IMG/VR virus record: IMGVR_UViG_3300042259_000159
Length of the DNA: 64,000 nucleotides
Reading direction: 5' to 3' (one strand)
Source: a virus
Below, one piece after another: positions 1 through 59,057 of the stretch. The position numbers and the translations under genes are program-made. Within the stretch, counting starts at the first letter, position 1, and every line of letters starts with the position of its first letter. The notes under the pieces were generated by a model. It was not told where the DNA came from, made no database searches, and saw only the letters and a program-made list of their open reading frames with translations.

Positions 1-407
1 GTATGGGTGTTAAGTATCAACTCGTTCGCGTGAACAACACCGTTGCGCTTTTTCTGGGCCAATCCGCCGTCGTCCATGTACCAAATGGCGATGTGGATTG
101 CAGACAGCCTGTTCAGGAGTTTCCGGTTGTAGATGTTTTTATAGCCATCTTTGTATAATATCCTTCTCAGTGTTTTACCCCATTTAGTTGTGCTTATATA
201 AGTTCGGTAGCTATCAAATCCGTTATTATTTTTGTAGGTGATGTCAGAGCACTTCACCCCTTCGGAACGTAGATACGCGATTTTCCACAGCAAGTAATCT
301 TTTTGAGCTGCGCAGTGCAGTATCGATCCGCTCCCAGTTTTACCTAAGTGTCCGTCGCCCAAGATGACACTTAGTAATGCAGTTCGTGAACTTCTGTTAA
401 ACTTCAT
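1..407 (-). CDS. LAGLIDADG homing endonuclease (N-terminal part; ORF runs off left edge)
   Basis: Minus-strand ATG at 407..405 preceded by GGAGG. My translation is MKFNRSSRTALLSVILGDGHLGKTG...IHIAIWYMDDGGL, which shows two LAGLIDADG-type motifs. Absent from the ORF track because it is truncated. Confidence 0.7.
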   Translation of the reverse strand, partial: MKFNRSSRTALLSVILGDGHLGKTGSGSILHCAAQKDYLLWKIAYLRSEGVKCSDITYKNNNGFDSYRTYISTTKWGKTLRRILYKDGYKNIYNRKLLNRLSAIHIAIWYMDDGGLAQKKRNGVVHANELILNTH

Positions 408-463: not shown

Positions 464-955
464 CTACCATAAGTAGTTACGGGAGATGTCCTTATAAGAT
501 CTCCGACTACGGATGTCGTCGTAGATATGCTTAGGTATCCCCATAAGGTCTCGAATTTCCTTTGCAGAGTGTCTGCCATCGGCAATCATCTGGCAAATTC
601 TATGCACCTTGTCATCAGGGAGTGTGCTATGTGGACGCTTGCACAACTTGTTCTTGAATGCGTGCTTCCGATTTTCAGATGGCGTCACCCACTCAAGATT
701 GTTCTTGTGGTTATCAATCTTAATCCCATTCTTATGATTGACAACTTTGCCTTCTTCGTAGCCTTGCACATATGTGTAAGCCACAAGTTTATGCACAAAG
801 ATACGAAGAGTCTTTCCTTCAGAGGAGAGGGTTACTCGCTTGTAACCTGTTCTATTAAGGTCAGTGCGCAACACTCTTCCTGTTTCTGAATTTAAGACAA
901 CACCCTCTTCATTAACGAGGTACTTTTCAAAACCTTTTATTGCGACTGGTCTCAC
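464..955 (-). CDS. HNH homing endonuclease
   Basis: Motif NHKNGIKIDNHKNNLEWVTPSENRKHA (HNH_3-like) with a NUMOD4-like N-terminus. GTG start preceded by AAGGAG. Lies inside the putative intron. Confidence 0.8.
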   Translation of the reverse strand: MRPVAIKGFEKYLVNEEGVVLNSETGRVLRTDLNRTGYKRVTLSSEGKTLRIFVHKLVAYTYVQGYEEGKVVNHKNGIKIDNHKNNLEWVTPSENRKHAFKNKLCKRPHSTLPDDKVHRICQMIADGRHSAKEIRDLMGIPKHIYDDIRSRRSYKDISRNYLW

Positions 956-1041
956 ACCTAATCTCCTTATAGTAGCTTGGCTCAGGATTGTCTCTGAGAG
1001 AGTTCCCCTGAATTCACACAGTTTTACGCGGGCATCAATTT

Positions 1042-2010
1042 ACCCGCCCCGAAGTAGAAGGTCTCTCCTAGTCTTCGTCCTCTTGTGGCTTTTGTCAGGC
1101 CAAGCCAAGGCCACGGCCTTCCGTATTCGGGCTTAGTTCTTGCTTTTTCTTTTAAGGTAGAACCCTTGACGATACGGGTGTTCTTTGGGACTACAGTCTT
1201 CCACTTGGTGGCTTGCAGACACTCCGCTACCTTCCCTTCGAGGAGACAGTCATTAACATCCTTACACGGAAGCTCAGCAACATGCCCTCCGGGGAAGATA
1301 CGAACAAACTCTTCTGCTGCTTTCTGACCGGGTTCGTCCATGTCAGGGACGTACACTACCTTCTCAAACAGCTGACGAATCTTGTTTGCATGTTGGAGAA
1401 CAGCCTTCTGCACACTTCCTGCTCCTGAAGGAAGGCTCACAACAGCAGGAATGAGATGTTTGTATTGGGTGTTTGCTACGCTATCCCTGAGCATTTGATA
1501 CAAAGACATTGCATCAATCTCACCTTCGGTGATGTACAGAGTCTTTGCTCCAGCTGTGATAGCTTGTTTCCAACCAAAGAACGAAGCCCCTTTCAAAGAG
1601 CCTATAGCCCACATCCTCTTATCTTTCAGGATTCGTGCTTTATAAGCAGTGAGCTGCCCTCCTTCATCCGTGTAAGGAAAGAATACGATGTCAGGAGTAG
1701 AGCCATCCATAGGTGAGACACCTACTTTGACATTGAAATGCTCAAGGGTTTCTTTCCTCAGCTTTCTTGAAGGAAGAGGATGAGAGAGAAGACTAATTAT
1801 GTGTTTAATTTCTTCGTCTATCTCTTCCTTCGTCTTTTTAGCCACTACAGGAGTGTAGCCTTCAGGTTTGTCCTTATAGGGGTCAGGGACATATTTTCCA
1901 CAAGAGAAACAGTAGCCATCATAGCTGCCATCTTCTTGTAAAAACACTTGTAAACCTGAAGCTGTTCCACAAGAGTGAGGCAATTTTTCTACGCATACTC
2001 CTCGTTTCAT
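1042..2010 (-). CDS. T7 gp4-like DNA primase-helicase, exon 1 (Zn-ribbon plus TOPRIM; helicase domain cut off)
   Basis: Cys cluster HSCG...CFSCGKY, TOPRIM motifs YITEGEIDAMSLYQ and VPDMDEPGQKAA, and the start of a helicase domain (GLTKATRGRRLGETFYFGAG). The track ORF is 1024..2010; the exon end is inferred. Confidence 0.7.
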
Positions 2011-2093
2011 ACCTCCTCCATGTTAGAAGTTAAAGGGGGAATTAACTTCCCCCTATTTATATATACGTCACAGACGAGAGAATGTGACAATTT

Positions 2094-2879
2094 TTATTGC
2101 ATATAATTCCGAATTGCTCTAGCGTATGCTTCAAGAGCAGTGCCCATAATGCCCGGAGCAGTGTTCACTTCCAAGACGTAAGCCATATTCGCCCGCTGGT
2201 TGTAGATAACATCCACTGCTCCGAAGTCAAGCCCAAGAGCTTTAACAGCGAGGAGAGCCTGATTCTGAACTTGGAAGGGGCAGGTGTCATTTACGTCAGC
2301 TCCGTCTTTGTCAGTCCGAACAAAGATGAATCCCTTCTCATGGTTGCGGATACGCCAATCCACATTCTTAATATTCATTTCGGGATTGAGGGCTTTCCTC
2401 GTGATGTCGATGATTCTCCCGTTAAAGACATGGACACGATACTCCTGCTTTTTCTTGATGTAAGCAGTGTAGAGAGGAGCCTCAGGAACTTTGCCATGAG
2501 GCTCCACCAATTCAATTCCCTTTCCGCCATACCCAACGAGAGTGTGACGAACGACTACACAACCTCCGTTTTCCGCCCACAACTGAGCTCTGTCTCGGTC
2601 GATAGTGAAGGCGGGAAAATTGACATACTCTTCATCTTCAAACACTTCAAAAGTACGAAGCTTGTTGGAAGCAATTGCCACTGCCTCAAAGTCGTTAAGC
2701 ACACGACAATCCTCAGGGATGTGCTTAGGACGGGTAGAGCAGCCCCAGTTGAGCACCATTTTATCGGGGGTCCATTTCCACTTGCTGCGTTCAGCTCGAA
2801 TGCGGAGAACACCCAATTCAGTAGCAAGGGCTTTAGCGGACGTAGACTCCATTTTGTAAGGCAGAATAAACAGTTTCAT
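2094..2879 (-). CDS. ATP-grasp family ligase
   Basis: VVVRHTLVGYGGKGIELV, EYRVHVFNGRIID, GLDFGAVDVIY...VLEVNTAPG are typical ATP-grasp (RimK-like) motifs. Confidence 0.7.
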   Translation of the reverse strand: MKLFILPYKMESTSAKALATELGVLRIRAERSKWKWTPDKMVLNWGCSTRPKHIPEDCRVLNDFEAVAIASNKLRTFEVFEDEEYVNFPAFTIDRDRAQLWAENGGCVVVRHTLVGYGGKGIELVEPHGKVPEAPLYTAYIKKKQEYRVHVFNGRIIDITRKALNPEMNIKNVDWRIRNHEKGFIFVRTDKDGADVNDTCPFQVQNQALLAVKALGLDFGAVDVIYNQRANMAYVLEVNTAPGIMGTALEAYARAIRNYMQ

Positions 2880-5054: not shown

Positions 5055-6266
5055 TTAAAAGGGTATATTAGAGTCATACAGGGAGACAAAGTCTTTGTCT
5101 TTCAGGCATTCCAAACAAACAGAATCGTATTCCGAGATGATTGCGATTTTCTCATTCCTCTCATAGAACTTCCCGCACCAGTCGCAGGAGTGGTAAGGGT
5201 GATGCGGGTAGCTTATCTTATACTCAATCTTAGGGGCTTCTTCCTCCTTCTGATTGATGGGAATGATGGAACCCACAGTGAAATACGTCTTCTTGTCGAG
5301 CGTTTGCCCGATGAACAATATCTTTGCCCGAAGGGGGACGCCCACAGGAACATCCGAGTTGCCATATGCGAAGTGACGAGCTTCAATATCCTCTCCAATC
5401 ACCTCACCGAAGTAGTCGACATTCTTCCCATATGTGCTTTCCCTTTTGTGGAACTTCACAGTGGCATACTCATCTTCTCGATAGGTGCGAAGATTCCCCA
5501 CTGCTTTTCGTGTTGCCCTCTCCCAATTATTCCACCCTTGGTGGATGTACGTTGTCTTGACAGGAGGCGTGTACGAGCAAGGAGTGAGCTTCTTGGTAGT
5601 GAGTTTAAGGCCGTTGCTCAAGTTCCACGAGTAGAGAACATTTTCTTTCACTTCGCAAGCTTTCATGCAGGGTATTTTGTTTCTCCAACATGCCGCATGA
5701 ATGAAGAAAGGCTCAGAAGCCCAGAACACCACCTTCTTTTCTTTGTCAAGCATATAGTAGAGAGGCCGCTTATCGTTCCGCAGCATGTTGAGCGTGTCTT
5801 CGTTTTCGTCATACCAGACAAGAGCAGCTGCCCCGCAAAGATTCTGCCAAGTGTCTTCCACACCATGTATGGACATATGGTGGTAGATGTTGGAAGAATC
5901 AACATCGAATTTCTTGTAATCCGCCAGAAGATGTTGGGCTGTAAGTGTTCCGTTATGCACTCCTGTAATGTGCCCATGCTGAAACGGATGAGCGTTTTCC
6001 TCGATAATAGTTCCTTTCGTTGCTGCTCTATTATGCCCTATAAGGCATTTCAACACTTGTGAAAAGATAGGCTGTACTTTACCAATGGTGACAAAGTCAT
6101 AGGCTGCCAGAAGAGATTTTTCGATAGTGACTTTCTTCGTATGGCGATTTACTCCAGCGAGACCCACGGAATCAACTCCGCGTATTTCGTCAAAGATGAG
6201 CATATCCTTGACTGCCTTCTCCTCTTTCGTTGTAATCAGTCCAGCTGCTCCAATAATACCACACAT
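5055..6266 (-). CDS. Class II (Ntn) glutamine amidotransferase with C-terminal Zn-ribbon region
   Basis: N-terminal MCGIIG (catalytic Cys2), GHNRAATKG, and C-terminal CDWCG...CLEC. Confidence 0.7.
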   Translation of the reverse strand: MCGIIGAAGLITTKEEKAVKDMLIFDEIRGVDSVGLAGVNRHTKKVTIEKSLLAAYDFVTIGKVQPIFSQVLKCLIGHNRAATKGTIIEENAHPFQHGHITGVHNGTLTAQHLLADYKKFDVDSSNIYHHMSIHGVEDTWQNLCGAAALVWYDENEDTLNMLRNDKRPLYYMLDKEKKVVFWASEPFFIHAACWRNKIPCMKACEVKENVLYSWNLSNGLKLTTKKLTPCSYTPPVKTTYIHQGWNNWERATRKAVGNLRTYREDEYATVKFHKRESTYGKNVDYFGEVIGEDIEARHFAYGNSDVPVGVPLRAKILFIGQTLDKKTYFTVGSIIPINQKEEEAPKIEYKISYPHHPYHSCDWCGKFYERNEKIAIISEYDSVCLECLKDKDFVSLYDSNIPF

Positions 6267-48848: not shown

Positions 48849-51800
48849 CTAAATGCTTTTATCTACAAACTTTCTCTGTGGAAAATCAAATTCCCGCCTT
48901 GTTTTATTCCAAGCTTTTACGGGTGTAAAAAACCCAACAACCCTTGTCAGCTGTGTACTTATATCTTCCGAACATATGGGGCATGTACTGAAGGAACCCA
49001 TAGAGACATGGGAGTTGATACACTCAGAGTATACGGTATTAATGGCAAAATGTTCACATCCACAACCCAAAGCAAAACAGATAATTTTCTTGGCCTGCTC
49101 TCTTGTCAGCCTCTGCCCGACAGTGGCATGAACAATCCCCCCGCCTGTTAGGTTTTTAGTATATTCTCCGTCAATTCTGAGCCTGTCCCACAGAGATGCC
49201 TCTTCCCACAAAGGAACAAACTGGTTTGCATAGAGAGGGTATTCTATAAAAGTATCGCCGTGAATGATCTTATCTGCGCTGCAAACTTTTACAGCCATAC
49301 TCTCTGCTGGGATTTGCTCAATGTTGAAGACATATCCTGCGTTCTTCTTGGTATACAATCTAGCTTTTCTGTTAAGAAATGTCAAGATCTTTTTCTTCAA
49401 ATCCCCCTCAACACCGAACCTTTGTTTAAGAACCTTTTCACACTCGTAAAGACCAAGAATACCAAACGTTGAAAAGAGCCTGTTGAGGTCTATCCACCCA
49501 CGCGTTATAAAAGGCTGAAGACCTATTTGTTCAAGGACATGAATCAAGACCTTATGAGCAATCAGAATATCTTTAGCAGCCTCTACACGGTACGTGTATA
49601 TTTTCCAAAAATCATCAATACTCTCGGCCTCAATTGCCATCTTGTTGAAATTAAGAGTAACAACTCTATGGCTCCCGATGCTGGAAAGAACACCGGCACC
49701 GAAAGAATTGGAGGTGGATGCCACATCTAACATCTCTTCATCATTGATCAATCGGCAACAGCTAGCGATCTTTGTGCTCTCAGATGTGAAAATATTGTAG
49801 CGCGAAATGTCTCTATTAAGAAATATTTCCAAACTCTCTTCGTCTGCAAGGATGTAATCATCGCCGTCCTTAGTTTTTGAAATGTTCATCGTGCAAACAG
49901 GGAACCTGTAAGGCATCCCGTTATTTGAGGGATCTCCTTTATCAAAGATGTCTAGGAATATTTCCTGCAATTCAAAAACATAGTCAACACACTCTTCTAT
50001 ATCTACAACACCACCATCTGAAAACATCCACAAAAGATGTTCCTTTATGATGTACCTGAGTTTGTGTTTATCAAACACCGATACATTGGTAAAGGGACTC
50101 TCAACTCCGTCACGACTCAAATGGTTTACGCTGTGAATAAGCTGTTGAAACTCGTTTTCTATCTCTTTCCTCACAGCCTTATCGTTTTTAAGCACATCAA
50201 GGGGAACCTTATTCTTTATCATGAGAAGGTGAGCAACATCTATAAATACAGTACCTATGGCTAGAGCACCAGCAACATGCGATGACATTTGGTGGATTGT
50301 CTCACACAGGGCGGCAATATAACTATTAACTCTTTTTGCCGGTTTAGAGGGCAATACTCCAAAAGTTCTTCCTTCTGTAATGAGATTTGTTGCGTTTAAA
50401 GAATAACAATTATGTTGCACCATTCCGTTTGCATAAAAACGGCCCGTTGCTGTTGTCAAATCATATACGTCTTGAAGCTCCTCTCTAAGCTTTCTTGTAC
50501 TAGGAATGTCTTCAAGATTAAACCTGATGATTTTTACAACCCTGTTGCTTTCGCCCTTGGTGTTTGCTTTTTCATTATACTTATCATAGTCTTCTTTATG
50601 CATCTTCATCTTATCAGAAAGATCAACCATCTTATTCGTACTTGACGGGACAAAGGAAAGGGCATAAATCGAATTAGAAATATCACTCCCTTTTATCCTT
50701 TTTCTAAGGCATCGAATACCTTCAATGCCTCTAAGGACGTCATAAAGTGTGTTTATTACTGCCATAGACTGCAAACAAATCTCCACCCTGCCATTCTTTT
50801 TGTAGGTATATCCGTCCGCGTCTACAAGCCCCGCAACAAGTGCCTCTACAGAATCATTTGTCCAAGAGAGGATGTTCTTAGGAAGAACCTTTGTGAAGCT
50901 ATTTTCTTTGTTCCCGAAACCAAAAAAGGCACTTACAAGAAAATTCATATCATAAGAAGACCAATTAATCTGTCTCTCGACTTTATCACTGGGCTTAAAA
51001 AGATTCGCATCAGGAAACAAGTCTTTTATGATACTATAAATTCTTGAGTTATCAATATCGTTTTGATAAACACTGCAAAGCGTTCCCCCTCTTGTAAATC
51101 TGAAAGAGCCTTTTATGTCCTTACCGTTCATTACGCCATCATCAACACAATACCCTTCAAAGTTCCCATCACCAAGCATAAAGCCAAGAAGGTAGGCCAG
51201 CTTTTCTGGAACAATTATTGTTTTTTCCACGGAGGGCAAACAAGTCTCTGTCAAAACAGCATCCCCAACAGAAAGTTCTGAGGCTATTTTTTCAGTTCCA
51301 TCTTCCATATAGATTGGGTGGTTGTCTGTTACCAAAGCAAAGTGCCCTGCCTCTGTCTGATACAAAGAGAATCCTGTATCCGTTTTATGCTTGATAATAC
51401 GTTGTACAGCAACCCATCCATTGTTTGTATCCCAAACCTCTATATTAACTTTTTCACTCACATTGCAGGCCAACTTACCGGAACGACCTTTTGCGGTGTT
51501 CTTGTTAGTGATGTTCGCACTCACATTATTACGCAGCATTGCTGTTGTAATCTCTAGATCTCTTGTAAGGCCTTTTGTGTTAATTTCCTCATGCGTACCC
51601 CTATTTTCGGAGTGTATTGCAAACATATTGAAAAGCTTTTTAAGAGGAATACAAATAATCTCTCCGTTAATTCTGACAAAAACAGGCGTGTTTCCATAAT
51701 ACGAATATGGAAGGTTTAGCTTCGTGCTGTCGGAGATGGGAAGACTGAAATCCAACATTTCTCCTATAAGCCTTTTAGCCCTCTTCTTGCCGTAGAGTTC

Positions 51801-52184
51801 CTTCATAACACGGTAGAGGAAATCGTACCCTGCAATTTTTTTCTGGGGGGCACTTGCCTCACTCTGTATTCCGGCAATTGTCTTCTCATTCTTATTAGCA
51901 TTGTCATCAATAGAGACATCATTAATGTTTGCATTTAATTGTTTTTGAAACATCTTGAGAAAGTCTGTATTGTCCTGCGAAAGACCATGCAGACGCATAA
52001 GTTTTTCAGCTTTTGTATCAATCTCTTCTTGAGAAAGGGTTGTTTTACGAGAAAGATTCCTTTTCAAAGCCTTAAGCATCTGTTTCCGTGTGTATTCAAT
52101 CTCAGCATCATTTGTAAAAGATGAAGAAAAACCTTTAGCTATGCTATTCAAAGCAGTAAACTCCTTCTTTTGTAAGTTTAACAT
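48849..52184 (-). CDS. nrdD: anaerobic ribonucleoside-triphosphate reductase (class III), intein-containing
   Basis: C-terminal CPICS Zn site and glycyl-radical region TRVVGFFTPVKAWN. Likely start MLNLQKKEF at 52184, overlapping the nrdG 3' end. A 432-aa insert carries intein blocks. Confidence 0.8.
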   Translation of the reverse strand: MLNLQKKEFTALNSIAKGFSSSFTNDAEIEYTRKQMLKALKRNLSRKTTLSQEEIDTKAEKLMRLHGLSQDNTDFLKMFQKQLNANINDVSIDDNANKNEKTIAGIQSEASAPQKKIAGYDFLYRVMKELYGKKRAKRLIGEMLDFSLPISDSTKLNLPYSYYGNTPVFVRINGEIICIPLKKLFNMFAIHSENRGTHEEINTKGLTRDLEITTAMLRNNVSANITNKNTAKGRSGKLACNVSEKVNIEVWDTNNGWVAVQRIIKHKTDTGFSLYQTEAGHFALVTDNHPIYMEDGTEKIASELSVGDAVLTETCLPSVEKTIIVPEKLAYLLGFMLGDGNFEGYCVDDGVMNGKDIKGSFRFTRGGTLCSVYQNDIDNSRIYSIIKDLFPDANLFKPSDKVERQINWSSYDMNFLVSAFFGFGNKENSFTKVLPKNILSWTNDSVEALVAGLVDADGYTYKKNGRVEICLQSMAVINTLYDVLRGIEGIRCLRKRIKGSDISNSIYALSFVPSSTNKMVDLSDKMKMHKEDYDKYNEKANTKGESNRVVKIIRFNLEDIPSTRKLREELQDVYDLTTATGRFYANGMVQHNCYSLNATNLITEGRTFGVLPSKPAKRVNSYIAALCETIHQMSSHVAGALAIGTVFIDVAHLLMIKNKVPLDVLKNDKAVRKEIENEFQQLIHSVNHLSRDGVESPFTNVSVFDKHKLRYIIKEHLLWMFSDGGVVDIEECVDYVFELQEIFLDIFDKGDPSNNGMPYRFPVCTMNISKTKDGDDYILADEESLEIFLNRDISRYNIFTSESTKIASCCRLINDEEMLDVASTSNSFGAGVLSSIGSHRVVTLNFNKMAIEAESIDDFWKIYTYRVEAAKDILIAHKVLIHVLEQIGLQPFITRGWIDLNRLFSTFGILGLYECEKVLKQRFGVEGDLKKKILTFLNRKARLYTKKNAGYVFNIEQIPAESMAVKVCSADKIIHGDTFIEYPLYANQFVPLWEEASLWDRLRIDGEYTKNLTGGGIVHATVGQRLTREQAKKIICFALGCGCEHFAINTVYSECINSHVSMGSFSTCPICSEDISTQLTRVVGFFTPVKAWNKTRREFDFPQRKFVDKSI
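50409..51704 (-). mobile_element. intein with LAGLIDADG homing endonuclease domain inside NrdD
   Basis: Block A SYYGNTPVFV (Ser1), block B LVTDNHPIY, LAGLIDADG motifs LAYLLGFMLGDGNF and LVAGLVDADGYTY, C-terminal FYANGMVQHN followed by extein Cys (CYSLN). Confidence 0.8.
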
Positions 52185-52659
52185 AATTATTATTATAAAG
52201 TTCTTGGTTAGACGAACCAAGTACGAGTTTTGTCCTTTGCCCTTTTGTTGTATCTGACTGGTGCAGTTCTTTTATATACTCTCCTGTTTTTATAAATTTG
52301 AAACCGTTAAGATTAAGGTATTTAACAGTGTCAATATCGTATCCAGTATAAATACATATGTTAAAACACCCACCGTATTGTTCTAAGAACTGTGCTGTAA
52401 ACCCTCTGTTGCAGGAGGCTAGCGGATCTCCACCAAGAAGTACAATATTATTTGTGCGGTATTTTAAGGTCTCCTGTTTACAATGGTTGTAGAAGTCTTC
52501 AATGGAAAATTCCACACCACCCTGATATTCAGGGTTTTGCAGGGAGGGGTTATGACACCCCTTACAGGAAAAATCACACCCACACATAAAAAGACTTACT
52601 GCCCACCCATCCTTTGAGGGGTAGTCTGTAAATGTCATCTCAGAACCTGCAAATCTCAT
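52144..52659 (-). CDS. nrdG: anaerobic RNR activating enzyme (radical SAM)
   Basis: CGCDFSCKGCHNP (CxxxCxxC cluster). Confidence 0.8.
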   Translation of the reverse strand: MRFAGSEMTFTDYPSKDGWAVSLFMCGCDFSCKGCHNPSLQNPEYQGGVEFSIEDFYNHCKQETLKYRTNNIVLLGGDPLASCNRGFTAQFLEQYGGCFNICIYTGYDIDTVKYLNLNGFKFIKTGEYIKELHQSDTTKGQRTKLVLGSSNQELYNNNYVKLTKEGVYCFE

Positions 52660-53422: not shown

Positions 53423-53604
53423 CGTTTCTCCTTTTTGCGTTGATAGGTGAATTTAATATTCCCAACCCTTGCAGGTATAACACTCTTTTCAATAACACGC
53501 CCACATGCCTTTTCAGGAATGGAGAAGGTATCTATAATTTCCCCATTACTATTAAACACCACTATAGTATCCACAAAACCCCCTAAAGGCTGAAAAAGCC
53601 GCTT

Positions 53605-54579
53605 TTAGCGGCAAAAATAAATGTCTGGTGAGAAGGTTAGAAGATCTTTTGTATGCACTGAGTATGAGATATCGTTCAAATCCTGTGCTTCGTGTAAAAT
53701 ATCAAACACAAGGAACCCGAAATCTACTGTTCCAGAACATTTCCTCTCTCCGAAAATTGTCTTTGGACCTTGAAGAGATGGACAAGACATCGCCATATAT
53801 TTTGTTGTACTGTTTGCAATGTGGTAGTGAACATGCCCACGGAGAATTACATCGCTTTTAGGCTGCATCTTTTTCTCTTCCCATAGGCGATTCCAGACAT
53901 ATTCTTTCGAAAGCTGTGTTGCCCTCCCGTGAGGGATTCCACTACTTCCAATGGCATGTCTGAGGTCAAAAAGAATCCCATTAATATCTACCCACAACCT
54001 ACCATCAAAAATAGCACCTATCTCTTTAGCTAGAACCTCTTCAAAATCCTCACCACCGGCATATGTATGGTAACCTGTCCCACCAACTAGAAAAATATTC
54101 TTACACGGGATTGAATCGAAGACTTGAACAGCTATATCTACTTGCTCGTTGAGGGATGAGGTTATCAGTCCATTTCCACCATCCTTAGATGCCTTGCCAT
54201 CAATTGCATCGCCTATGTGAAAAAGTGCATCGATATGGCCTAAGGATGAAACCCCTGTAGAGAAAAAGTCCCACATCTCTTCTTGCATAGAGGCAATCTT
54301 CTTTCTTTCCTCTTTGCTTCCTCCTTGAACGTTAAACATCCAGTCTGGAGGTGTCAAACCAACCTTACTTCCGCAGTGGGTATCCGAGATAACCAAAACC
54401 CTTGAGAAATCCCTTTTACACCTTTCCTCCTCTTTTTCCCACTTTGTGAGACCCTTATACTTATCCTTAAGAAAGTCGTGAACAGAAGATTTTGGAACCC
54501 CTGTTGCGGCAGAAATCTGCCTTATAGACTTCCCAGCCTTTTGCATTATAAGAGCAACCTCTTTCTGATATTCCTCCAT
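53605..54579 (-). CDS. calcineurin-like metallophosphoesterase with N-terminal HTH
   Basis: VISDTHCG, IGDAIDG, RGHVHYH. N-terminal GKSIRQISAATGVPKSSVHDFL. Confidence 0.6.
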   Translation of the reverse strand: MEEYQKEVALIMQKAGKSIRQISAATGVPKSSVHDFLKDKYKGLTKWEKEEERCKRDFSRVLVISDTHCGSKVGLTPPDWMFNVQGGSKEERKKIASMQEEMWDFFSTGVSSLGHIDALFHIGDAIDGKASKDGGNGLITSSLNEQVDIAVQVFDSIPCKNIFLVGGTGYHTYAGGEDFEEVLAKEIGAIFDGRLWVDINGILFDLRHAIGSSGIPHGRATQLSKEYVWNRLWEEKKMQPKSDVILRGHVHYHIANSTTKYMAMSCPSLQGPKTIFGERKCSGTVDFGFLVFDILHEAQDLNDISYSVHTKDLLTFSPDIYFCR

Positions 54580-54616
54580 CTAACCTCCTTTACTCCTGTT
54601 TTTGGGAATAGAAATA

Positions 54617-54646
54617 TGGTACTGGCAGCGGGATTCGAACCCACAC
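54617..54646 (-). tRNA. orphan tRNA 3' fragment (T-arm, acceptor 3' strand, CCA)
   Basis: Minus strand reads GTGGGTTCGAATCCCGCTGCCAGTACCA with no upstream D or anticodon arms. Its acceptor strand complements the 5' acceptor ACTGGTA at 55323..55317. Confidence 0.6.
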
Positions 54647-54658
54647 TGAAGGGGGGAT

Positions 54659-55108
54659 TTACTTATCTCTCTGGTAGTAGTGCTTTGATATTGCACTTCT
54701 TTCCATTTTTTGAATTTTTTTATTCTGAACGTCGGACCCATAACGTCCAGAACACGTTCTGGAACAAAAGGGCCCAGCTTTATTTTTAATGTTTCTCTGT
54801 GTCACCGTTGGCGTAAAAAGAGAATCGCAATATGGACACTTTACTTCTTCCACTCTCACCCTTACCACATCAAGCGAAGCATGGGAGGATCTACACAAAA
54901 CTTGTAAATTTTCAATTTTGTTGTTCAGTGGATTTCTATCAATGTGGTCAACTGTCTCAGATGGATCTAAAACTCTGCCCAGATGCACTTCCATTATAAT
55001 TCTGGAAGCCTGTTTAGCAGTTCTTTTAATTCCATCATATAAAACAATGACCAGTCTACCGTCTTTCCTTAAATATGGCCCATAAATTTTTTTACACTCT
55101 GGGTACAA
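54659..55108 (-). CDS. HNH homing endonuclease
   Basis: VDHIDRNPLNNKIENLQVLCRSSHA plus C-terminal CPYC...CSRTC. The track ORF extends to 55192 but overlaps tRNA-Leu; a TTG at 55108 is proposed as the start. Confidence 0.65.
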   Translation of the reverse strand: MYPECKKIYGPYLRKDGRLVIVLYDGIKRTAKQASRIIMEVHLGRVLDPSETVDHIDRNPLNNKIENLQVLCRSSHASLDVVRVRVEEVKCPYCDSLFTPTVTQRNIKNKAGPFCSRTCSGRYGSDVQNKKIQKMERSAISKHYYQRDK

Positions 55109-55122
55109 TTTTTGAATGTGTT

Positions 55123-55206
55123 TGGTAGGAGAAGAGAGATTCGAACTCTCAAGGAATAATCCGTCGAGGCTTAAACTCGATGTGTTTACCATTTCACCAT
55201 TCTCCC
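55123..55206 (-). tRNA. tRNA-Leu (anticodon UAA), type II with long variable arm, CCA encoded
   Basis: GGGAGAA/TTCTCCT acceptor, anticodon arm TCGAG-TTTAAGC-CTCGA, T-arm GAGAG-TTCGAAT-CTCTC. Confidence 0.75.
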
Positions 55207-55245
55207 GTATTTTTTATCTACCATTCCGCCATTCCCGCATTTATT

Positions 55246-55323
55246 TGGTACCCACTGTGAGATTCGAACCCACACTAATCAGTTTCTAAGACTGATGCCT
55301 CTGCCAAGTTGGGCTATACCAGT
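55246..55323 (-). tRNA. chimeric / possibly defective tRNA (anticodon UAG, short variable loop)
   Basis: Good D, anticodon (TCAGT-CTTAGAA-ACTGA) and T arms. However, 5' acceptor ACTGGTA pairs poorly with the local 3' strand AGTGGGT and well with TGCCAGT at 54617..54646. Confidence 0.45.
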
Positions 55324-55581
55324 ATTATGCTTATTATTTTATTTTGAAAGGCCATATGTATACACATATATATATATACATATATATATGTATAGAGCAA
55401 CCAAAATGGTTAAATAAAAAGGTGTTTTGTGGAGACACCAAACTCCTCCAGTTTTAGTGATCTGGAAACAATAAGCGGCGCAGGTGCTCTTTAAAACACG
55501 TGCTACCAAGCGTATAAATTGTCTAGGGGATTTCACCAAACACATTATGTTATTGGAGGGATCTTTCCCTAGACTCAGTAA

Positions 55582-55654
55582 AGCTCCTGACAGGACTTGA
55601 ACCCGCAACCGGCTGATTACAAATCAGCTGCTCTGCCAGTTGAGCTACAGGAGC
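55582..55654 (-). tRNA. tRNA-Thr (anticodon UGU), no encoded CCA
   Basis: GCTCCTG/CAGGAGC acceptor, GCTGA-TTTGTAA-TCAGC. Confidence 0.8.
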
Positions 55655-55658
55655 AGAA

Positions 55659-55730
55659 CAGAGGGAGAAGGATTCGAACCTTCGAATGACGGGACCAAAA
55701 CCCGTTGCCTTACCGCTTGGCTACCCCTCT
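55659..55730 (-). tRNA. tRNA-Gln (anticodon UUG), no encoded CCA
   Basis: ACGGG-TTTTGGT-CCCGT anticodon arm, T-arm GAAGG-TTCGAAT-CCTTC. Confidence 0.75.
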
Positions 55731-55738
55731 AAATTTTT

Positions 55739-55815
55739 TGGCTCCGGCGGCAGGATTTGAACCTACATTCGCAATGGTTAACAGCCATTTGCCTTACCAA
55801 TTCGGCGACACCGGA
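55739..55815 (-). tRNA. tRNA-Asn (anticodon GUU), CCA encoded
   Basis: AATGG-CTGTTAA-CCATT, TTCAAAT T-loop, acceptor TCCGGTG/CGCCGGA. Confidence 0.75.
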
Positions 55816-55860
55816 ATGAACTTTTTATTTGTTATCAGCATTGTTTTGCTTTATTTTAAA

Positions 55861-55939
55861 TGGTCTCGGTGATTAGATTTGAACTAATGATTATTCCTGC
55901 TCCCAAAGCAGGTGCCATACCAAGCTAGGCGACACCGAG
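55861..55939 (-). tRNA. tRNA-Pro (anticodon UGG), CCA encoded
   Basis: CCTGC-TTTGGGA-GCAGG, T-arm ATTAG-TTCAAAT-CTAAT, acceptor CTCGGTG/CACCGAG. The variable region is slightly long. Confidence 0.65.
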
Positions 55940-56293
55940 ATCAGGTGTGGTACCAAACTCCACTATGGGCAGAGGTTATAAGAAGGTCCGTACATGATAT
56001 AGACAGATATTCTTCCATAACAGCGGTACGGACGCTGTCTCATTTTTATATCTTTCAGTGTGCTATTACGCCAAAGGGAAATTAAGCCTTACCAGTTACG
56101 GGGTGCCCTTTTACTATCCACAAAGAATTTCAAATCGCGTGCATTCTAAGTATCGGAAAATTCTACAACCACTTAAAGTACACCTCGTTTAAGAGATAGC
56201 GACCTGTGCTTCGTCCCACTCTTTAAAGGATGGCTGCCTCAAAGCCCACCTCCTGAAAAATGCATGAAGGATTATCCCTCCTTCGCTAAATAC

Positions 56294-56322
56294 AACCTAT
56301 CAATTTTAAGGGTTCTTGTCAA
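56294..56322 (-). promoter_or_regulatory. sigma70-type promoter (TTGACA-N17-TAGGTT, then GTATTTAGC) facing the tRNA cluster
   Basis: The minus strand has the same architecture as the promoters at 26289 and 32237. Confidence 0.5.
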
Positions 56323-56423
56323 GAACATTTTAAGGTTTTTGAAATTTTTGTTGAACGCTGATTTGCTACGCGGGTACAGCGTTCGAAACCTCGATAGCAT
56401 CCTTGCCGTTGGCAAAGCTGTCA

Positions 56424-56505
56424 GGAGCCGCAGGAGGAGAATTGAACTCCTCTGGCATCAACACGCAGTCACCACAACTACATCTACCGTTACGGGTATG
56501 GCTCC
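56424..56505 (-). ncRNA. degenerate tRNA-like element
   Basis: GGAGCC/GGCTCC acceptor-like helix, hairpin GTAGT-TGTGGTG-ACTGC, perfect T-arm AGGAG-TTCAATT-CTCCT. It has extra nucleotides and a non-canonical anticodon loop. Confidence 0.3.
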
Positions 56506-56519
56506 CCATCCTAGTCACC

Positions 56520-56790
56520 TGTTGATACCTTATAGGTTCAGCCCTACCAAGGGCACTGCGGCTTAAGTGGGTTGGTTGGTGCAGATTGTGAACGTACCCC
56601 CGCCTATAGAGGCGGAAGCTTCCTGCTTCAGCGAGAACAGCACCAGTAACTCCGAAGAGTTGTGGCGAATTACACTCTCTCCACAGGCGTAAATTCCCGT
56701 GCGACCCACGGTACTTTATGAGTTACGCTAGGCAGATATTCGCCCAGCTTCTTCTCTAATATTTATTGCAGCGTTCTTGTCACGGTTATG
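56520..56790 (-). ncRNA. expected TnpB omega-RNA (reRNA) region
   Basis: Located by position at the 3' end of tnpB plus downstream sequence. Hairpins CCGTGGGTCGCACGG, ACTCttcgGAGT and CCGCCtctataGGCGGGGG are present; the exact ends are unknown. Confidence 0.3.
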
Positions 56791-57976
56791 ATGACTGCCA
56801 CACTTAAGGCAATCCCATTCCCGCACAGACAAGTCTTTGGTATCCTTGTTCTGGTAGCCACAGACATGGCATAGCTGACTGCTTGGATACCATTTGTCTA
56901 TCTTGATAAGTTGCTTACCCTGCCATGCAAGTTTGTATTTCAGCATACTTGTGAACATGCTCCAGCCGTTGTCGGATATGGATTTACCAAAGTTGAACTT
57001 GCCACCCTTCTTTCGCTTCGCCATGTCCTTTACGCTAATGTCCTCTATGCCAATCACATCATAGCGGTCTGCAAGATAACGAGCTTTCTTATGCAGGAAG
57101 TCGCGGCGTTGATTAGCAATTTTCTCATGGAGTACAGCCAAACGTAGTCTTTGTTTATTCCTATTACGGCTCCCTTTTTGTCTCTTGGAGAGTTTTCTTT
57201 GTGCCTTGATCAATCTCTTTTCGGCTTCCCGTAAGAAATTTGGATAATCGGCGTTGTCCTCATCGGAAGCAACATACATCCCGTGCATAGCAAAATCCAA
57301 TCCAAGAAAATTCTTCGGTATGATGGGAAGTATTTGGTTTTCATACTCCACCAAAATACTAATATAGTATTTTCCTGACGGTGTTTTACTTATGGTTACA
57401 GTCTTTATGGTGCTATTCTCCATCAATGGACGATGCAGACACAGCTTTACCCAACCTATTTTCGGCAGCTTGACTTTGTTTCCCTCGATTCTTACAGAGC
57501 CATGTTGGTTGTTCGTAGAATATGAAGCATGACCCGCTTTCTTCGACTTGAAGCGTGGCTTGCAAAAATGCTTCCTATTGCTCCAAAAGTTGTTATACGC
57601 CTTGTTCAGGTTTATTTGGGCATTGGCGAGAGCAAGGCTGTCAACCTCTTTCAGCCAAGGAAACTCTTTCTTGTACTGTGCAGGTGTGTTGTTCAGCCTC
57701 TCTCCTGTTTCCTTATAGTGATCAAGACGATCTCCAAGCATCTTGTTATAGATGAATCTGGCACTGCCGAAAGTCTTGGCAAACATAATCTTCTGTTCAA
57801 TTGTCGGGTAGAGTCTATATCGGTATGCCTTATTCACTATAATCACCTGCCTTGATTTTCTATGTATTTACGAATTGTCTCAAACGGAGCAATTATCTGG
57901 CTCAACTACTTACGTAAATTCGCTAGACACACCTTCATCCCCCACCTTAGAGGTGGAGGGCTTCTGGCGGGTTAGG
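56560..57976 (-). mobile_element. IS200/IS605-family TnpB-only element (boundaries approximate)
   Basis: tnpB is flanked by similar subterminal hairpins: LE CCCTCCACCtctaaGGTGGGGG (57939-57960) and RE CCGCCtctataGGCGGGGG (56597-56614). No tnpA is present. Confidence 0.55.
56728..57846 (-). CDS. tnpB: TnpB (OrfB_IS605) RNA-guided nuclease
   Basis: N-terminus AYRYRLYPTIEQKIMFAKTFGSARFIYN. RuvC-like GLDFAM / IGIEDISVKDM / RDKNAAINI. Zn-ribbon CHVCGY...CLKCGSHHNRD. Confidence 0.9.
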   Translation of the reverse strand: MIIVNKAYRYRLYPTIEQKIMFAKTFGSARFIYNKMLGDRLDHYKETGERLNNTPAQYKKEFPWLKEVDSLALANAQINLNKAYNNFWSNRKHFCKPRFKSKKAGHASYSTNNQHGSVRIEGNKVKLPKIGWVKLCLHRPLMENSTIKTVTISKTPSGKYYISILVEYENQILPIIPKNFLGLDFAMHGMYVASDEDNADYPNFLREAEKRLIKAQRKLSKRQKGSRNRNKQRLRLAVLHEKIANQRRDFLHKKARYLADRYDVIGIEDISVKDMAKRKKGGKFNFGKSISDNGWSMFTSMLKYKLAWQGKQLIKIDKWYPSSQLCHVCGYQNKDTKDLSVREWDCLKCGSHHNRDKNAAINIREEAGRISA

Positions 57977-58013
57977 TTAAATCCCTTGTGTCTACTAATT
58001 CCACCAATCGGGC
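57977..58013 (-). pseudogene. truncated tRNA-Leu(UAA) 5' half ending at the anticodon (..AAGGGATTTAA)
   Basis: GCCCGATTGGTGGAATTAGTAGACACAAGGGATTTAA, then unrelated sequence (the IS left end). It duplicates the 5' half and upstream spacer of the tRNA at 58023..58109. Confidence 0.7.
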
Positions 58014-58022
58014 TAAAATCTT

Positions 58023-58109
58023 TGGTGCCCAATGCAGGACTCGAACCTGCACGCCATTTCAGGCAGGAGGGCTTAAACCTCGTGTGTCTACCAATTCCAC
58101 CAATCGGGC
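58023..58109 (-). tRNA. tRNA-Leu (anticodon UAA), type II, CCA encoded
   Basis: Close to E. coli leuZ-type layout: GCCCGAT..GTGGAATTGGTAGACAC..TTTAAGC..TGCAGGTTCGAGTCCTGCATTGGGCACCA. Confidence 0.8.
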
Positions 58110-58118
58110 TAAAATCTT

Positions 58119-58202
58119 TGGTGCCTCAGACAGGATTCGAACCTGCACGGATCTCTCCACTTGGTCCTAAGCCAAGCGTGTCTGCCATTCCACCACTGAG
58201 GC
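58119..58202 (-). tRNA. tRNA-Leu (anticodon UAG), type II, CCA encoded
   Basis: GCCTCAG acceptor, CTTGG-CTTAGGA-CCAAG, long variable arm, GCAGGTTCGAATCCTGT. Confidence 0.8.
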
Positions 58203-58260
58203 TGAAATTTTAATTAAAGTTTGACATACTCCCCACGGATAAATCCGGGGGATTCTGGAT

Positions 58261-58413
58261 TCAAACAGCAACGGCGGGTGCAAGCACCCTTCTGTCTGTC
58301 ATTGAGGCAGTCGCCTTAGAACCAGCCGCTGCACCGAACTCGCTACCGCTGGGCGCTCTGCAAGAACACACTCCCAGATATGTATGCCAATAGCAATTTT
58401 TGTCATGTTTCAT
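58261..58413 (-). CDS. small Cys-rich protein (50 aa)
   Basis: ATG after GGAGGTAAAC; below the track cut-off. Confidence 0.35.
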   Translation of the reverse strand: MKHDKNCYWHTYLGVCSCRAPSGSEFGAAAGSKATASMTDRRVLAPAVAV

Positions 58414-58443
58414 GTTTACCTCCGCTCGCAGGTGAGCTATTCG

Positions 58444-58596
58444 TTATATGTCGTAAAATTCATGGCTCGTGTATTTGCACGGGATTACCCCATGCAAAAC
58501 GTGCAGGAAGGCAAGCACAGCCTGACGCACGGCCTCCCTTAATGCCTTTTTTGCTACGGCAAAATTCGCCATCATGTGCTTAAAATAGATCATCAT
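58444..58596 (-). CDS. small protein homologous to the N-terminus of 25794..26186
   Basis: HVLHGVIPCKYTSHEFY compared with HALHGIIPCKYTSHDYW; weak RBS. Confidence 0.3.
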   Translation of the reverse strand: MMIYFKHMMANFAVAKKALREAVRQAVLAFLHVLHGVIPCKYTSHEFYDI

Positions 58597-58646
58597 ATAA
58601 CCAGTCAATCAACCGGATTTGCTATGCTCTCCGGTTATTTCGGTCG

Positions 58647-59057
58647 TTAGCCTTCCATCGCCAGCTTGATTGCCCGGCGAACTTTCCCAAAATCGTGAAT
58701 CGAAAACAGGCATCCGCCGAAATTATACCGGCAGACCATCTCCGCATCCAGCCAGCGCAACACCTCCAGCATTTCAGGGGCGGCTGCAATAAGTTTGGCG
58801 TTGGCCTCCATGATTGGCACGCGTCCTTGCACGCCACGGGCAGAGGTTGCACATACCGGGTTGCCGTTGCAATCCTCTACTATCAACCGGCCTTTTCGGT
58901 CCGGCACAACTCCGGCAGTAACCGACCACGGGCCGGGACTATGCACAGGATAATCTTCCCTGTTGTAGGCTGTTTTCCCATCCGTTATAATTGTCGGCGT
59001 TTCGCTATCTTTGCAAACCTTTCCCCGATATGTATTTCCGTCACCGTAGCTATTCAT
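58647..59057 (-). CDS. hypothetical protein
   Basis: Contains EANAKLIAAAPEMLEVL, a motif I recall from many phage and prophage hypothetical proteins. Confidence 0.5.
   Translation of the reverse strand: MNSYGDGNTYRGKVCKDSETPTIITDGKTAYNREDYPVHSPGPWSVTAGVVPDRKGRLIVEDCNGNPVCATSARGVQGRVPIMEANAKLIAAAPEMLEVLRWLDAEMVCRYNFGGCLFSIHDFGKVRRAIKLAMEG

Follow-up and report, generated by a model that had tools for sequence, protein, structure and literature searches.

A predicted HNH endonuclease gene with a spare tRNA-Leu(UAA) inside a broken phage tRNA gene: a probable mobile cassette

How does a virus come to carry a tRNA gene whose two ends do not fit each other, together with an orphan tRNA 3' end that fits the first of them from the far side of an endonuclease gene? 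The question is raised by the IMG/VR virus record IMGVR_UViG_3300042259_000159, of which a stretch of 64,000 nucleotides (nt), here called the window, was analysed. It has a tRNA cluster of eight genes within 55.1-58.2 kb, and all genes relevant to the locus are on the minus strand. An HNH endonuclease gene and a complete tRNA-Leu(UAA) separate the mismatched tRNA from the orphan. The arrangement is best explained, in our judgement with good probability, by a selfish cassette of about 0.6 kb, in which the HNH gene is joined by an intact tRNA-Leu(UAA) of its own and which is lodged inside a resident phage tRNA gene. We hold it just as probable that this free-standing HNH cassette, carrying its spare tRNA, hops between tRNA genes by means of conserved D- and T-arm homology.

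The mismatched gene (55323..55246, 78 nt) is a chimera of two parts, A5' and B (Table 1), with the sequence ACUGGUA-UA-GCCC..GAGGC-A-UCAGU-CUUAGAA-ACUGA-UUAGU-GUGGG-UUCGAAU-CUCAC-AGUGGGU-A-CCA. The initial annotation had stated that its acceptor strands cannot pair. The fit is indeed poor, but the statement goes too far, as ACUGGUA and AGUGGGU form two Watson-Crick pairs and three G-U pairs beside two mismatches. A seven-pair acceptor stem with a standard cloverleaf was not recovered. ARAGORN, a check that the initial annotation had proposed, gave no normal call for the 78-nt gene; it reported only a version of 69 nt without a D-arm (55246..55314), which takes GCCCAAC of the D-arm as a stand-in acceptor strand. 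With the Rfam tRNA model the chimera scores 37.8 bits, the lowest of the eight tRNAs of the window (48-66 bits for the other seven). Its minimum free energy fold is not a cloverleaf, and the energy is ordinary for its composition (z = -0.5). Judging from these predictions, the chimeric A5'/B3' tRNA is probably non-functional.

The orphan 3' end (54644..54617) reads GUGGG-UUCGAAU-CCCGC-UGCCAGU-A-CCA, and the sequence that precedes it is not tRNA-like. As had been noticed at the outset, its UGCCAGU matches the 5' strand ACUGGUA of the chimera, with 7/7 pairs including one G-U. A 15-mer present in both T-arms, and at only these two sites of the window, had been taken as a shared breakpoint. The exact repeat is in fact the 16-mer AGTGTGGGTTCGAATC, found at 55276..55261 and 54647..54632 with a spacing of 629 bp, but the breakpoint need not be there. 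In-silico deletion between the repeats, which joins the outer pieces, was another check proposed by the annotation, and it gives a clean canonical 78-nt tRNA(UAG) by ARAGORN.

The block of approximately 630 bp between the repeats holds all that was first ascribed to it: a foreign tRNA 3' end, a complete tRNA-Leu(UAA) and an HNH gene. A second 5' fragment had been overlooked. This fragment, C5', comprises the 22 nt GCGGGAAUGGCGGAAUGGUAGA, that is GCGGGAA-UG-GCGGAAUGGUAGA, between the foreign 3' end and the tRNA-Leu(UAA), a location equal to that of the 5' bracketing halves in three other loci described below (L059, L065 and L067). Since its acceptor is unpaired with the downstream orphan, C5' is best read as what remains of a gene that hosted the cassette before. 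On this reading of the sequence, a second fossil points to at least two successive events.

Table 1. Parts of the locus in the window, genes of the short-variable-loop tRNA family, and acceptor halves (5' / 3') that bracket related units at other loci.
Feature	Position	Strand	Remark
A5': start of the resident short-variable-loop tRNA (tRNA-A), with 5' acceptor strand and D-arm, ACUGGUAUAGCCCAACUUGGCAGAGGCAU	55295..55323	minus	29 nt identical to the intact L004 tRNA; pairs 7/7 with 54620..54626
B: part of a foreign tRNA from tRNA-A's family, running from the anticodon arm (UAG) through variable loop and T-arm to the 3' acceptor AGUGGGU, A73 and CCA	55246..55294	minus	anticodon arm unlike L004 at nearly all positions
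16-mer, upstream copy, AGUGUGGGUUCGAAUC (variable loop, T-stem, T-loop)	55261..55276	minus	exact repeat
C5': orphan 5' fragment of a third, Leu-type tRNA (acceptor GCGGGAA, UG, D-arm to GGUAGA)	55217..55238	minus	seen in the sequence
Left A-rich spacer UAAAAAAUAC, left part of the conserved cassette	55207..55216	minus	homologous spacer in all four cassette copies
Cassette tRNA-Leu(UAA), long variable arm, apparently functional	55123..55206	minus	ARAGORN; Rfam 57.3 bits
Predicted HNH homing endonuclease gene (HNH_3 and C-terminal Cys4 zinc-finger-like motif)	54659..55108	minus	Pfam, PHROG
Right spacer AUCCCCCCUUCAGU, HNH stop codon to T-stem	54645..54658	minus	resembles the L059 right spacer UUUAUCCUUACAGC
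16-mer, downstream copy, candidate right-hand recombination junction	54632..54647	minus	shared cassette sequence ends at GGTTCGA in all four copies
A3': orphan end of resident tRNA-A, with T-arm, 3' acceptor UGCCAGU, A73 and CCA	54617..54644	minus	orthologous to the L004 tRNA 3' end; pairs with A5'
Short-variable-loop family, window	55246..55323
Short-variable-loop family, L004	4937..5015
Short-variable-loop family, L001	207..285, 949..1026, 1527..1603
L059-61 bracket			CGGGGUA / UACCCCG-ACCA
L065/66 bracket			ACGGGUA / UACCCGU-ACCA
L067 bracket			GCCCGAG / CUUGGGC-ACCA
L069 bracket			GCCCGGG / UCCGGGC
L076 bracket			GCCCGGU / ACCGGGC; HNH ATG directly after the D-arm
L101 bracket			GGGAGAU / AUUUCCC
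L123 bracket			GCCUGAG / CUCAGGC

A close relative shows the site in its uninterrupted state. The IMG/VR contig UViG_3300036466_000329 (L004) is 92-99% identical to the window over the tRNA cluster and the downstream gene of 324 amino acids. At the orthologous site it has one intact tRNA of 79 nt, ACUGGUAUAGCCCAACUUGGCAGAGGCAU-AGCACUUAAAAUGCUAAAAG-GUGUGGGUUCGAAUCCCAC-UACCAGU-ACCA, which scores 59.2 bits against 37.8 for the chimera, and neither the HNH gene nor the cassette tRNA-Leu is found there. Synteny is kept in the four upstream tRNAs, an AT-rich repeat and the 324-amino-acid gene. The HNH gene is thus polymorphic for presence between collinear close relatives, and no relative shows the split arrangement without it. 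The first 29 nt of the L004 tRNA are those of the window, and its 3' end, with about 12 nt past the CCA, is orthologous to the orphan; it follows that resident tRNA-A supplied both outer pieces, as its two ends, and that the inner part B is foreign. Because the anticodon arm of L004 (UAA, against UAG) is unlike that of the chimera at almost all positions, the junction on the left may fall where the D-arm ends, around position 29, rather than in the 16-mer. Searches of GenBank phage DNA (distant mode for the locus, near mode for 24 kb of the window) returned generic tRNA matches only and no close cultured relative. As a candidate for the missing 5' partner of AGUGGGU, ACCCACUUA at about 56573 was rejected as probable chance: matches of this type are expected about once per 128 kb of two-strand sequence, this one has no tRNA-like continuation, and it falls in 56282..56591, a stretch that aligns to L004 at 94.8%.

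Two further observations concern the surroundings of the site. Between the intact tRNA and the 324-amino-acid gene, L004 has a PAPS-reductase-like gene (5220..5962) in two overlapping open reading frames (ORFs) of 97 and 155 amino acids, which is probably frameshifted; its absence from the window indicates that the spot is an insertion hot spot. Just upstream of the chimeric tRNA (55340..55400) there is the AT-rich, partly palindromic (TA)n/(TG) repeat TATACACATATATATATATACATATATATATGTATAG, kept in L004, for which Rfam gave only sub-threshold matches to microRNA-like hairpins.

The same unit recurs in other split tRNA genes. A search of 5.8 billion proteins found homologues of the HNH protein, 82-91% identical, on contigs of unrelated contexts, one of which (L059-61) has T4-like neck and tail-completion genes (Pfam gp13, gp15). 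In L059-61, L065/66 and L067 the HNH gene is preceded each time by the same tRNA-Leu(UAA), and each such pair is bracketed by a 5' piece (acceptor and D-arm) and a 3' piece (T-arm, acceptor and CCA) with complementary acceptors, given in Table 1. A decayed copy with a truncated HNH gene is present in L068. Alignment of the four full copies shows common sequence from the D-loop GGTAGA and the A-rich spacer to the T-loop GGTTCGA; the core is 83-92% identical, and identity outside it is at the 50-60% baseline of the alignment method. The body of the cassette tRNA-Leu(UAA) is nearly invariant across the four contexts, and its acceptor stems differ in a compensatory way (GGGAGAA/UUCUCCU, GGGAGUG/CACUCCU and GGGGGAG/CUCCCCU). 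A scan for an empty site of the L059 context with its 5' half returned nothing. Among details of these copies, the G1-U72 wobble of the tRNA-Leu(UAA) is kept in all of them (window, L059, L065 and L067) and the compensatory variation concerns pairs 4:69, 6:67 and 7:66. The tRNA cluster of the L059 phage, which has the 82%-identical cassette, also includes a 91-nt tRNA (ARAGORN, 125..215) with anticodon UUA, reading the UAA stop codon, a possible suppressor tRNA.

The HNH protein, of 149 amino acids, matches Pfam HNH_3 (PF13392; 38.9 bits against a cut-off of 24.8, 6.5e-10), weakly zf-FCS, and PHROG 14913 'HNH endonuclease' (2e-20). Pfam gave no GIY-YIG domain, which would mark the SegB family. 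The catalytic and metal-binding residues of the motif, D54-H55, N67-L68 and H76, invariant or nearly so in 28 homologues, are all present, as are all invariant residues of the family alignment. The nearest solved structure is I-HmuI (PDB 1U3E), with a weak profile match (E = 0.007) over the HNH core. The likely start is a TTG at 55108, and the frame is open up to an ATG at 55192, within the tRNA. Values of dN/dS between cassette copies are 0.12-0.16, so the HNH gene is under purifying selection, which together with the compensatory changes in the tRNA stems indicates that both cassette genes have been kept functional. The only genes in the roughly 630 bp of insert are the HNH ORF and the tRNA; no integrase or transposase is encoded there, and a promoter and terminator scan of 54400..56300 gave nothing above shuffled expectation.

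A clade profile search of metagenome contigs extended the comparison to 80 HNH loci. In 27 of them a tRNA lies within 400 bp of the HNH gene; its anticodon is UAA in 20, and a Leu(UAG) is adjacent in two more. Many of these tRNA-adjacent loci have the HNH gene before the tRNA and not after it. Perfect brackets were found in eight of 27 tRNA-Leu-adjacent loci, against 2% of cross-locus pairings (binomial P = 4e-8), with tight windows, which were used because wider ones had a false-positive rate of 10%. Related units are inside broken tRNA genes at no fewer than seven other examined places, three of them with a near-identical copy. The cleanest case is L123. Its host gene, a long-variable-arm tRNA-Leu(UAA), is interrupted precisely at the anticodon loop by a short-variable-loop tRNA(UAA) and the HNH gene; each half of the host gene is complete, and the anticodon triplet itself is the HNH stop codon. 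L083 repeats the gene order of the window: short-variable-loop tRNA(UAG), tRNA-Leu(UAA), HNH, orphan T-arm. A homologue (40-47% identity) directly upstream of a tRNA-Leu(UAA) is also present in cultured phages, namely the PVP-SE1-like Salmonella phages and Klebsiella phage KP13-16, and the HNH ATG of the Salmonella phages is directly adjoined by a 5' tRNA fragment, GCGUCCUUGGUCCAAUCUGGUAGAGGCAU. A tRNA link for the IMG/VR homologues of 40-46% identity, several of them on contigs of more than 250 kb, was also considered and rejected, as just 6 of 22 have a tRNA within 1.5 kb.

Two loci of the clade carry other tRNA remains. In L078 the HNH gene and a short-variable-loop tRNA(UAA) are followed, at about 2070..2145, by a Leu-like tRNA with a perfect acceptor stem (GCGCCCU/AGGGCGC), a D-arm and a T-arm, and no recognisable anticodon arm, which may be a scar left after cassette loss. 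In L073 (2074..2160) the HNH-tRNA-Leu(UAA) pair is followed by two stacked 3' tRNA stubs, CUAUUCCCCGGACCACCA and then ..ACCGGUUCGAGUCCGUUUCGGGGCACCA, which suggests repeated events at one site.

A mechanism can be proposed on this basis. During co-infection, the HNH protein would nick or cut Leu-type tRNA genes of cassette-free genomes, and the break would be repaired from a cassette-bearing genome. The D- and T-arm remnants of the previous host tRNA (..GGUAGA on the left and GGUUCGA.. on the right) would act as short homology arms, so that the interior of the target, typically positions ~27-48, would be swapped for the cassette and the acceptor halves of the target would stay on either side of it, still complementary. 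In the window, the left crossover would have taken place one gene further upstream, in the donor's neighbouring tRNA(UAG) 'B', a member of the family of resident A. The 3' part of B, the C5' relic, the tRNA-Leu(UAA) and the HNH gene would have been co-converted together, producing the chimeric A5'/B3' gene and displacing the 3' end of A. Although a tRNA gene is destroyed, the genome would still be able to decode UUA/UUG by means of the carried tRNA. Replacement between D- and T-arms would account for brackets that match themselves and yet are specific to each context, for shared sequence that stops at the D- and T-loops, and for the stacking of relics. Of this picture, the anatomy, the empty site, the recurrence, the limits of the common sequence, the selection on the HNH gene and the link to tRNA(UAA) are direct observations; cleavage and its target, the use of the arms as homology, the succession of events and the loss of function of the chimera are inferred.

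Several points weigh against this reading. The expected donor, an intact tRNA-B (ACCCACU/AGUGGGU) beside a cassette that splits C, is absent from all collections searched; exact-pattern scans of IMG/VR with the 5' half, the foreign 3' end and the tRNA/HNH junction found the source contig and L004 only, and the core of the cassette tRNA had no exact match among metagenome contigs. For this reason the order of events in the window is reconstructed and not observed. The homology arms would be very short, approximately 10-25 bp. The HNH protein of the window lacks 10-20 N-terminal residues of its homologues, with an uncertain start codon. In the clade, a tRNA is lacking within 400 bp of 53 of the 80 homologues, and many members, L082, L087, L134 and L144 among them, have an intact tRNA-Leu(UAA) as neighbour but no bracketing halves that could be detected, which makes insertion into a tRNA gene one outcome and not the rule.

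Arrays of tRNA genes are rich in short shared motifs, and this locus has undergone other rearrangements (a TnpB element and a deletion), L004 has a different insert after its tRNA, and 3' stubs are stacked at some loci such as L073. Ordinary decay or rearrangement of the array by duplication, deletion or unequal crossing-over, with the HNH gene there by chance, draws on all of this; it is nonetheless unlikely, given that one HNH+tRNA-Leu unit lies within the halves of four different tRNAs in unrelated contexts, that the shared sequence stops exactly at the D-loop and the T-loop, that brackets are enriched over the cross-locus controls, and that purifying selection acts on the HNH gene. Had a recombinase or transposase integrated the element site-specifically, with the 16-bp direct repeats as attachment core, an element-borne 3' end would be left on the resident 5' part and the resident 3' end displaced to the far side, and the swapped 3' end and short direct repeats do recall the footprint of integrase-mediated islands and prophages. 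The TnpB element is, moreover, only 1.4 kb away. Unlike those islands, the 630-bp insert has no integrase or transposase, its 3' end restores no working acceptor stem, and the junctions of the sister copies are at variable D- and T-arm positions instead of one fixed core; the TnpB element has a separate insertion site in another tRNA-Leu gene. We regard integration of this kind as very unlikely.

A functional interrupted tRNA, whose parts from 55323 and 54644 onwards are joined or paired at the RNA level, would be in keeping with the perfect cloverleaf that the joined outer pieces form and with the insertion in L123, exactly in the anticodon loop with both halves complete. Group I introns interrupt the anticodon-loop region of tRNA-Leu(UAA) in cyanobacteria. 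Yet neither the window nor the sister loci gave a match to a group I intron or any other ribozyme (for the Intron_gpI model, none at E <= 1 in 53500..59000 and none at E <= 0.1 in seven sister loci, L076, L101 and L123 being outside the scan), and the tRNA and the ORF leave no room for a ribozyme core. The halves in L059, L065, L067, L069 and L076 have no anticodon arm, so that joining them gives no decoder, and the L004 gene is contiguous. We give this explanation hardly any weight, and the related suggestion of the initial annotation, a tRNA that needs unusual processing, found no support. Repeats in tRNA arrays can also confuse assemblers, but a chimeric assembly of similar tRNA genes has a negligible probability here: the same arrangement occurs in contigs from three other JGI samples, which argues that it is not an artefact, and in the IMG/VR contig UViG_3300042267_000152, which matches the window with 100% identity over the neighbouring 324-amino-acid gene; the repeats are just 16 bp, well below read length; and analogous architecture is found in unrelated ENA and Logan assemblies. 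The hopping cassette remains the probable explanation. The footprint of endonuclease-driven gene conversion from a related phage, as first proposed, holds in so far as the insertion or conversion is linked to the HNH gene, with an empty site in L004, but it was drawn too narrowly. The donor need not be a related phage, because the [tRNA-Leu(UAA)+HNH] unit recurs in unrelated contexts with a different split tRNA each time.

The closest analogue among known systems is SegB of phage T4, whose recognition site includes the T-loop motif GGTTCRANTCC and which cleaves tRNA genes of relatives without SegB, with co-conversion of the tRNA region (PMC2330249). Homologues of SegB are widely associated with tRNA genes, have no isotype preference, and form tRNA+segB units that can be amplified (PMC13096335). 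The window resembles this system in having a free-standing nuclease gene among phage tRNA genes and co-converted flanking tRNA sequence, seen in the chimera and the co-transferred fragments. It differs in that SegB is a GIY-YIG protein and the window nuclease an HNH_3 protein, in the tie of the HNH clade to tRNA(UAA), and in that SegB lies between tRNA genes, whereas the unit in the window lies inside one, bracketed by complementary halves. Such split-tRNA bracketing is not described in PMC2330249 or PMC13096335, and a literature search of incomplete coverage found no description of it, which is weak evidence. By analogy, the element would work like SegB without being a member of its family. 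The F-Tfl site-specific endonuclease genes of T5 are also in a phage tRNA cluster, as cited in PMC2330249; tblastn matched 29 records at E <= 1e-10, none of them T5.

Other systems share single features with the locus. I-HmuI, an HNH nicking homing endonuclease of Bacillus phage SPO1, is of the same Pfam family type, HNH_3, but it resides in a self-splicing group I intron of a protein gene; the HNH gene of the window has no intron, and the C-terminal DNA-binding part of its product is a Cys4 zinc-finger-like motif. In phage Aeh1, nrdA is a gene split by insertion of the homing endonuclease gene mobE. Together with 'fractured genes' with split inteins (PMC2677866), it offers the parallel of a nuclease gene within a conserved gene and no self-splicing intron. 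The pieces in those cases still give a working product, whereas in the window the broken tRNA seems to be lost, and the nuclease is accompanied by a whole spare tRNA gene. The group I intron of tRNA-Leu(UAA) in cyanobacteria and plastids has the same target gene, and the anticodon loop is what is interrupted in L123; unlike that intron, the insert has no detectable ribozyme and contains a tRNA and an ORF. What is new with respect to known free-standing endonucleases of tRNA clusters is the HNH fold, the tie to tRNA(UAA), and the presence of a whole tRNA plus HNH unit inside a tRNA gene.

The anticodon UAG on a body with a short variable loop, noted as an oddity of the chimeric gene, is present, but it is not isolated. 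Tags of this family are the D-arm UAGCCCAA..GG.AGAGGCA, a short variable loop, A73 and an anticodon UAG, UAA or CAA, all found in the window gene. FelixO1-like phages have such tRNAs of 74-78 nt with all three anticodons, the UAG member being 80% identical to the gene of the window. Eight members were aligned (window, L004, a FelixO1-like phage, L078, L079, L083, L112 and L123), and family genes are annotated as tRNA-Leu in GenBank. For Shigella phage Sf14, the top tRNAscan isotype score of the TAG, TAA and CAA tRNAs is Leu, in a paper that does not mention variable arms (PMC12482277). With FelixO1-like phages and several metagenomic loci represented, the sequences identify the short-variable-loop UAG tRNA as a recurrent phage tRNA family and not an anomaly of this locus. 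TRNAs with a short variable loop are often the 'spare' next to the HNH gene.

The neighbourhood contains further elements. An IS605-family TnpB element (56590..58013; ORF 56728..57846, minus strand; 1881..3356 in L004) is inserted in a tRNA-Leu(UAA) right after the anticodon (..GGUUUAA followed by the element). In L004 both halves of its sole tRNA-Leu(UAA) with a long variable arm are complete around the element; the window has an intact tRNA-Leu(UAA) at 58109..58023, then a second 5' half at 58013..57977 and the TnpB element, the 3' half being deleted. If the right-end flank serves as guide, the L004 TnpB would be directed at intact tRNA-Leu(UAA) genes. Taken with the HNH cassette, these insertions indicate that the tRNA-Leu(UAA) genes of the lineage are hit by two selfish elements, with a spare decoder always present. 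In the non-coding region between the TnpB element and a tRNA-Pro, 48 nt (56205..56252, minus strand) match positions 1097-1144 of the bacterial 23S rRNA model with 26.7 bits (E = 2.8e-5), below the gathering score, and the stretch 56280..56590 is GC-rich and structured in look, has no convincing ORF and is conserved in L004. An ORF for NrdD, the anaerobic ribonucleotide reductase (48849..52220, minus strand, 1,123 amino acids), has an apparent intein, on the basis of a weak Pfam Intein_splicing match together with an NRDD match of the corresponding L062 gene, which is cut there at the locus end; the intein would be a further selfish element less than 3 kb from the HNH cassette.

To our knowledge, homing endonucleases have been thought to persist in conserved genes only by means of introns or inteins, or else between genes. 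A nuclease that breaks a tRNA gene and yet brings a spare would represent a further survival strategy. More tentatively, with a probability that we place somewhat below even, the cassette could exemplify a distinct route of gene invasion into Leu-type tRNA genes, independent of introns, inteins and intergenic sites, with a complete same-codon replacement tRNA immune to cleavage and portable D- and T-arms that allow hops between non-orthologous tRNAs and unrelated phages. If so, layered relics such as those of the window would be a record of successive hops, and short-variable-loop 'Leu' tRNAs could persist partly by escaping such nucleases. The element would also explain the mosaic and fragmentary tRNA genes found in phage clusters. 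For annotation, the consequence is that the chimera is reported as tRNA-Leu by standard tools though probably dead, and the half-tRNAs go unannotated. The cultured relatives, the PVP-SE1-like Salmonella phages and KP13-16, make the idea accessible to experiment. Phage tRNA clusters have been linked to escape from bacterial defences that cleave tRNA, and an element that shuffles tRNA genes and spreads them across unrelated phages could influence the arms races between phages and their hosts.

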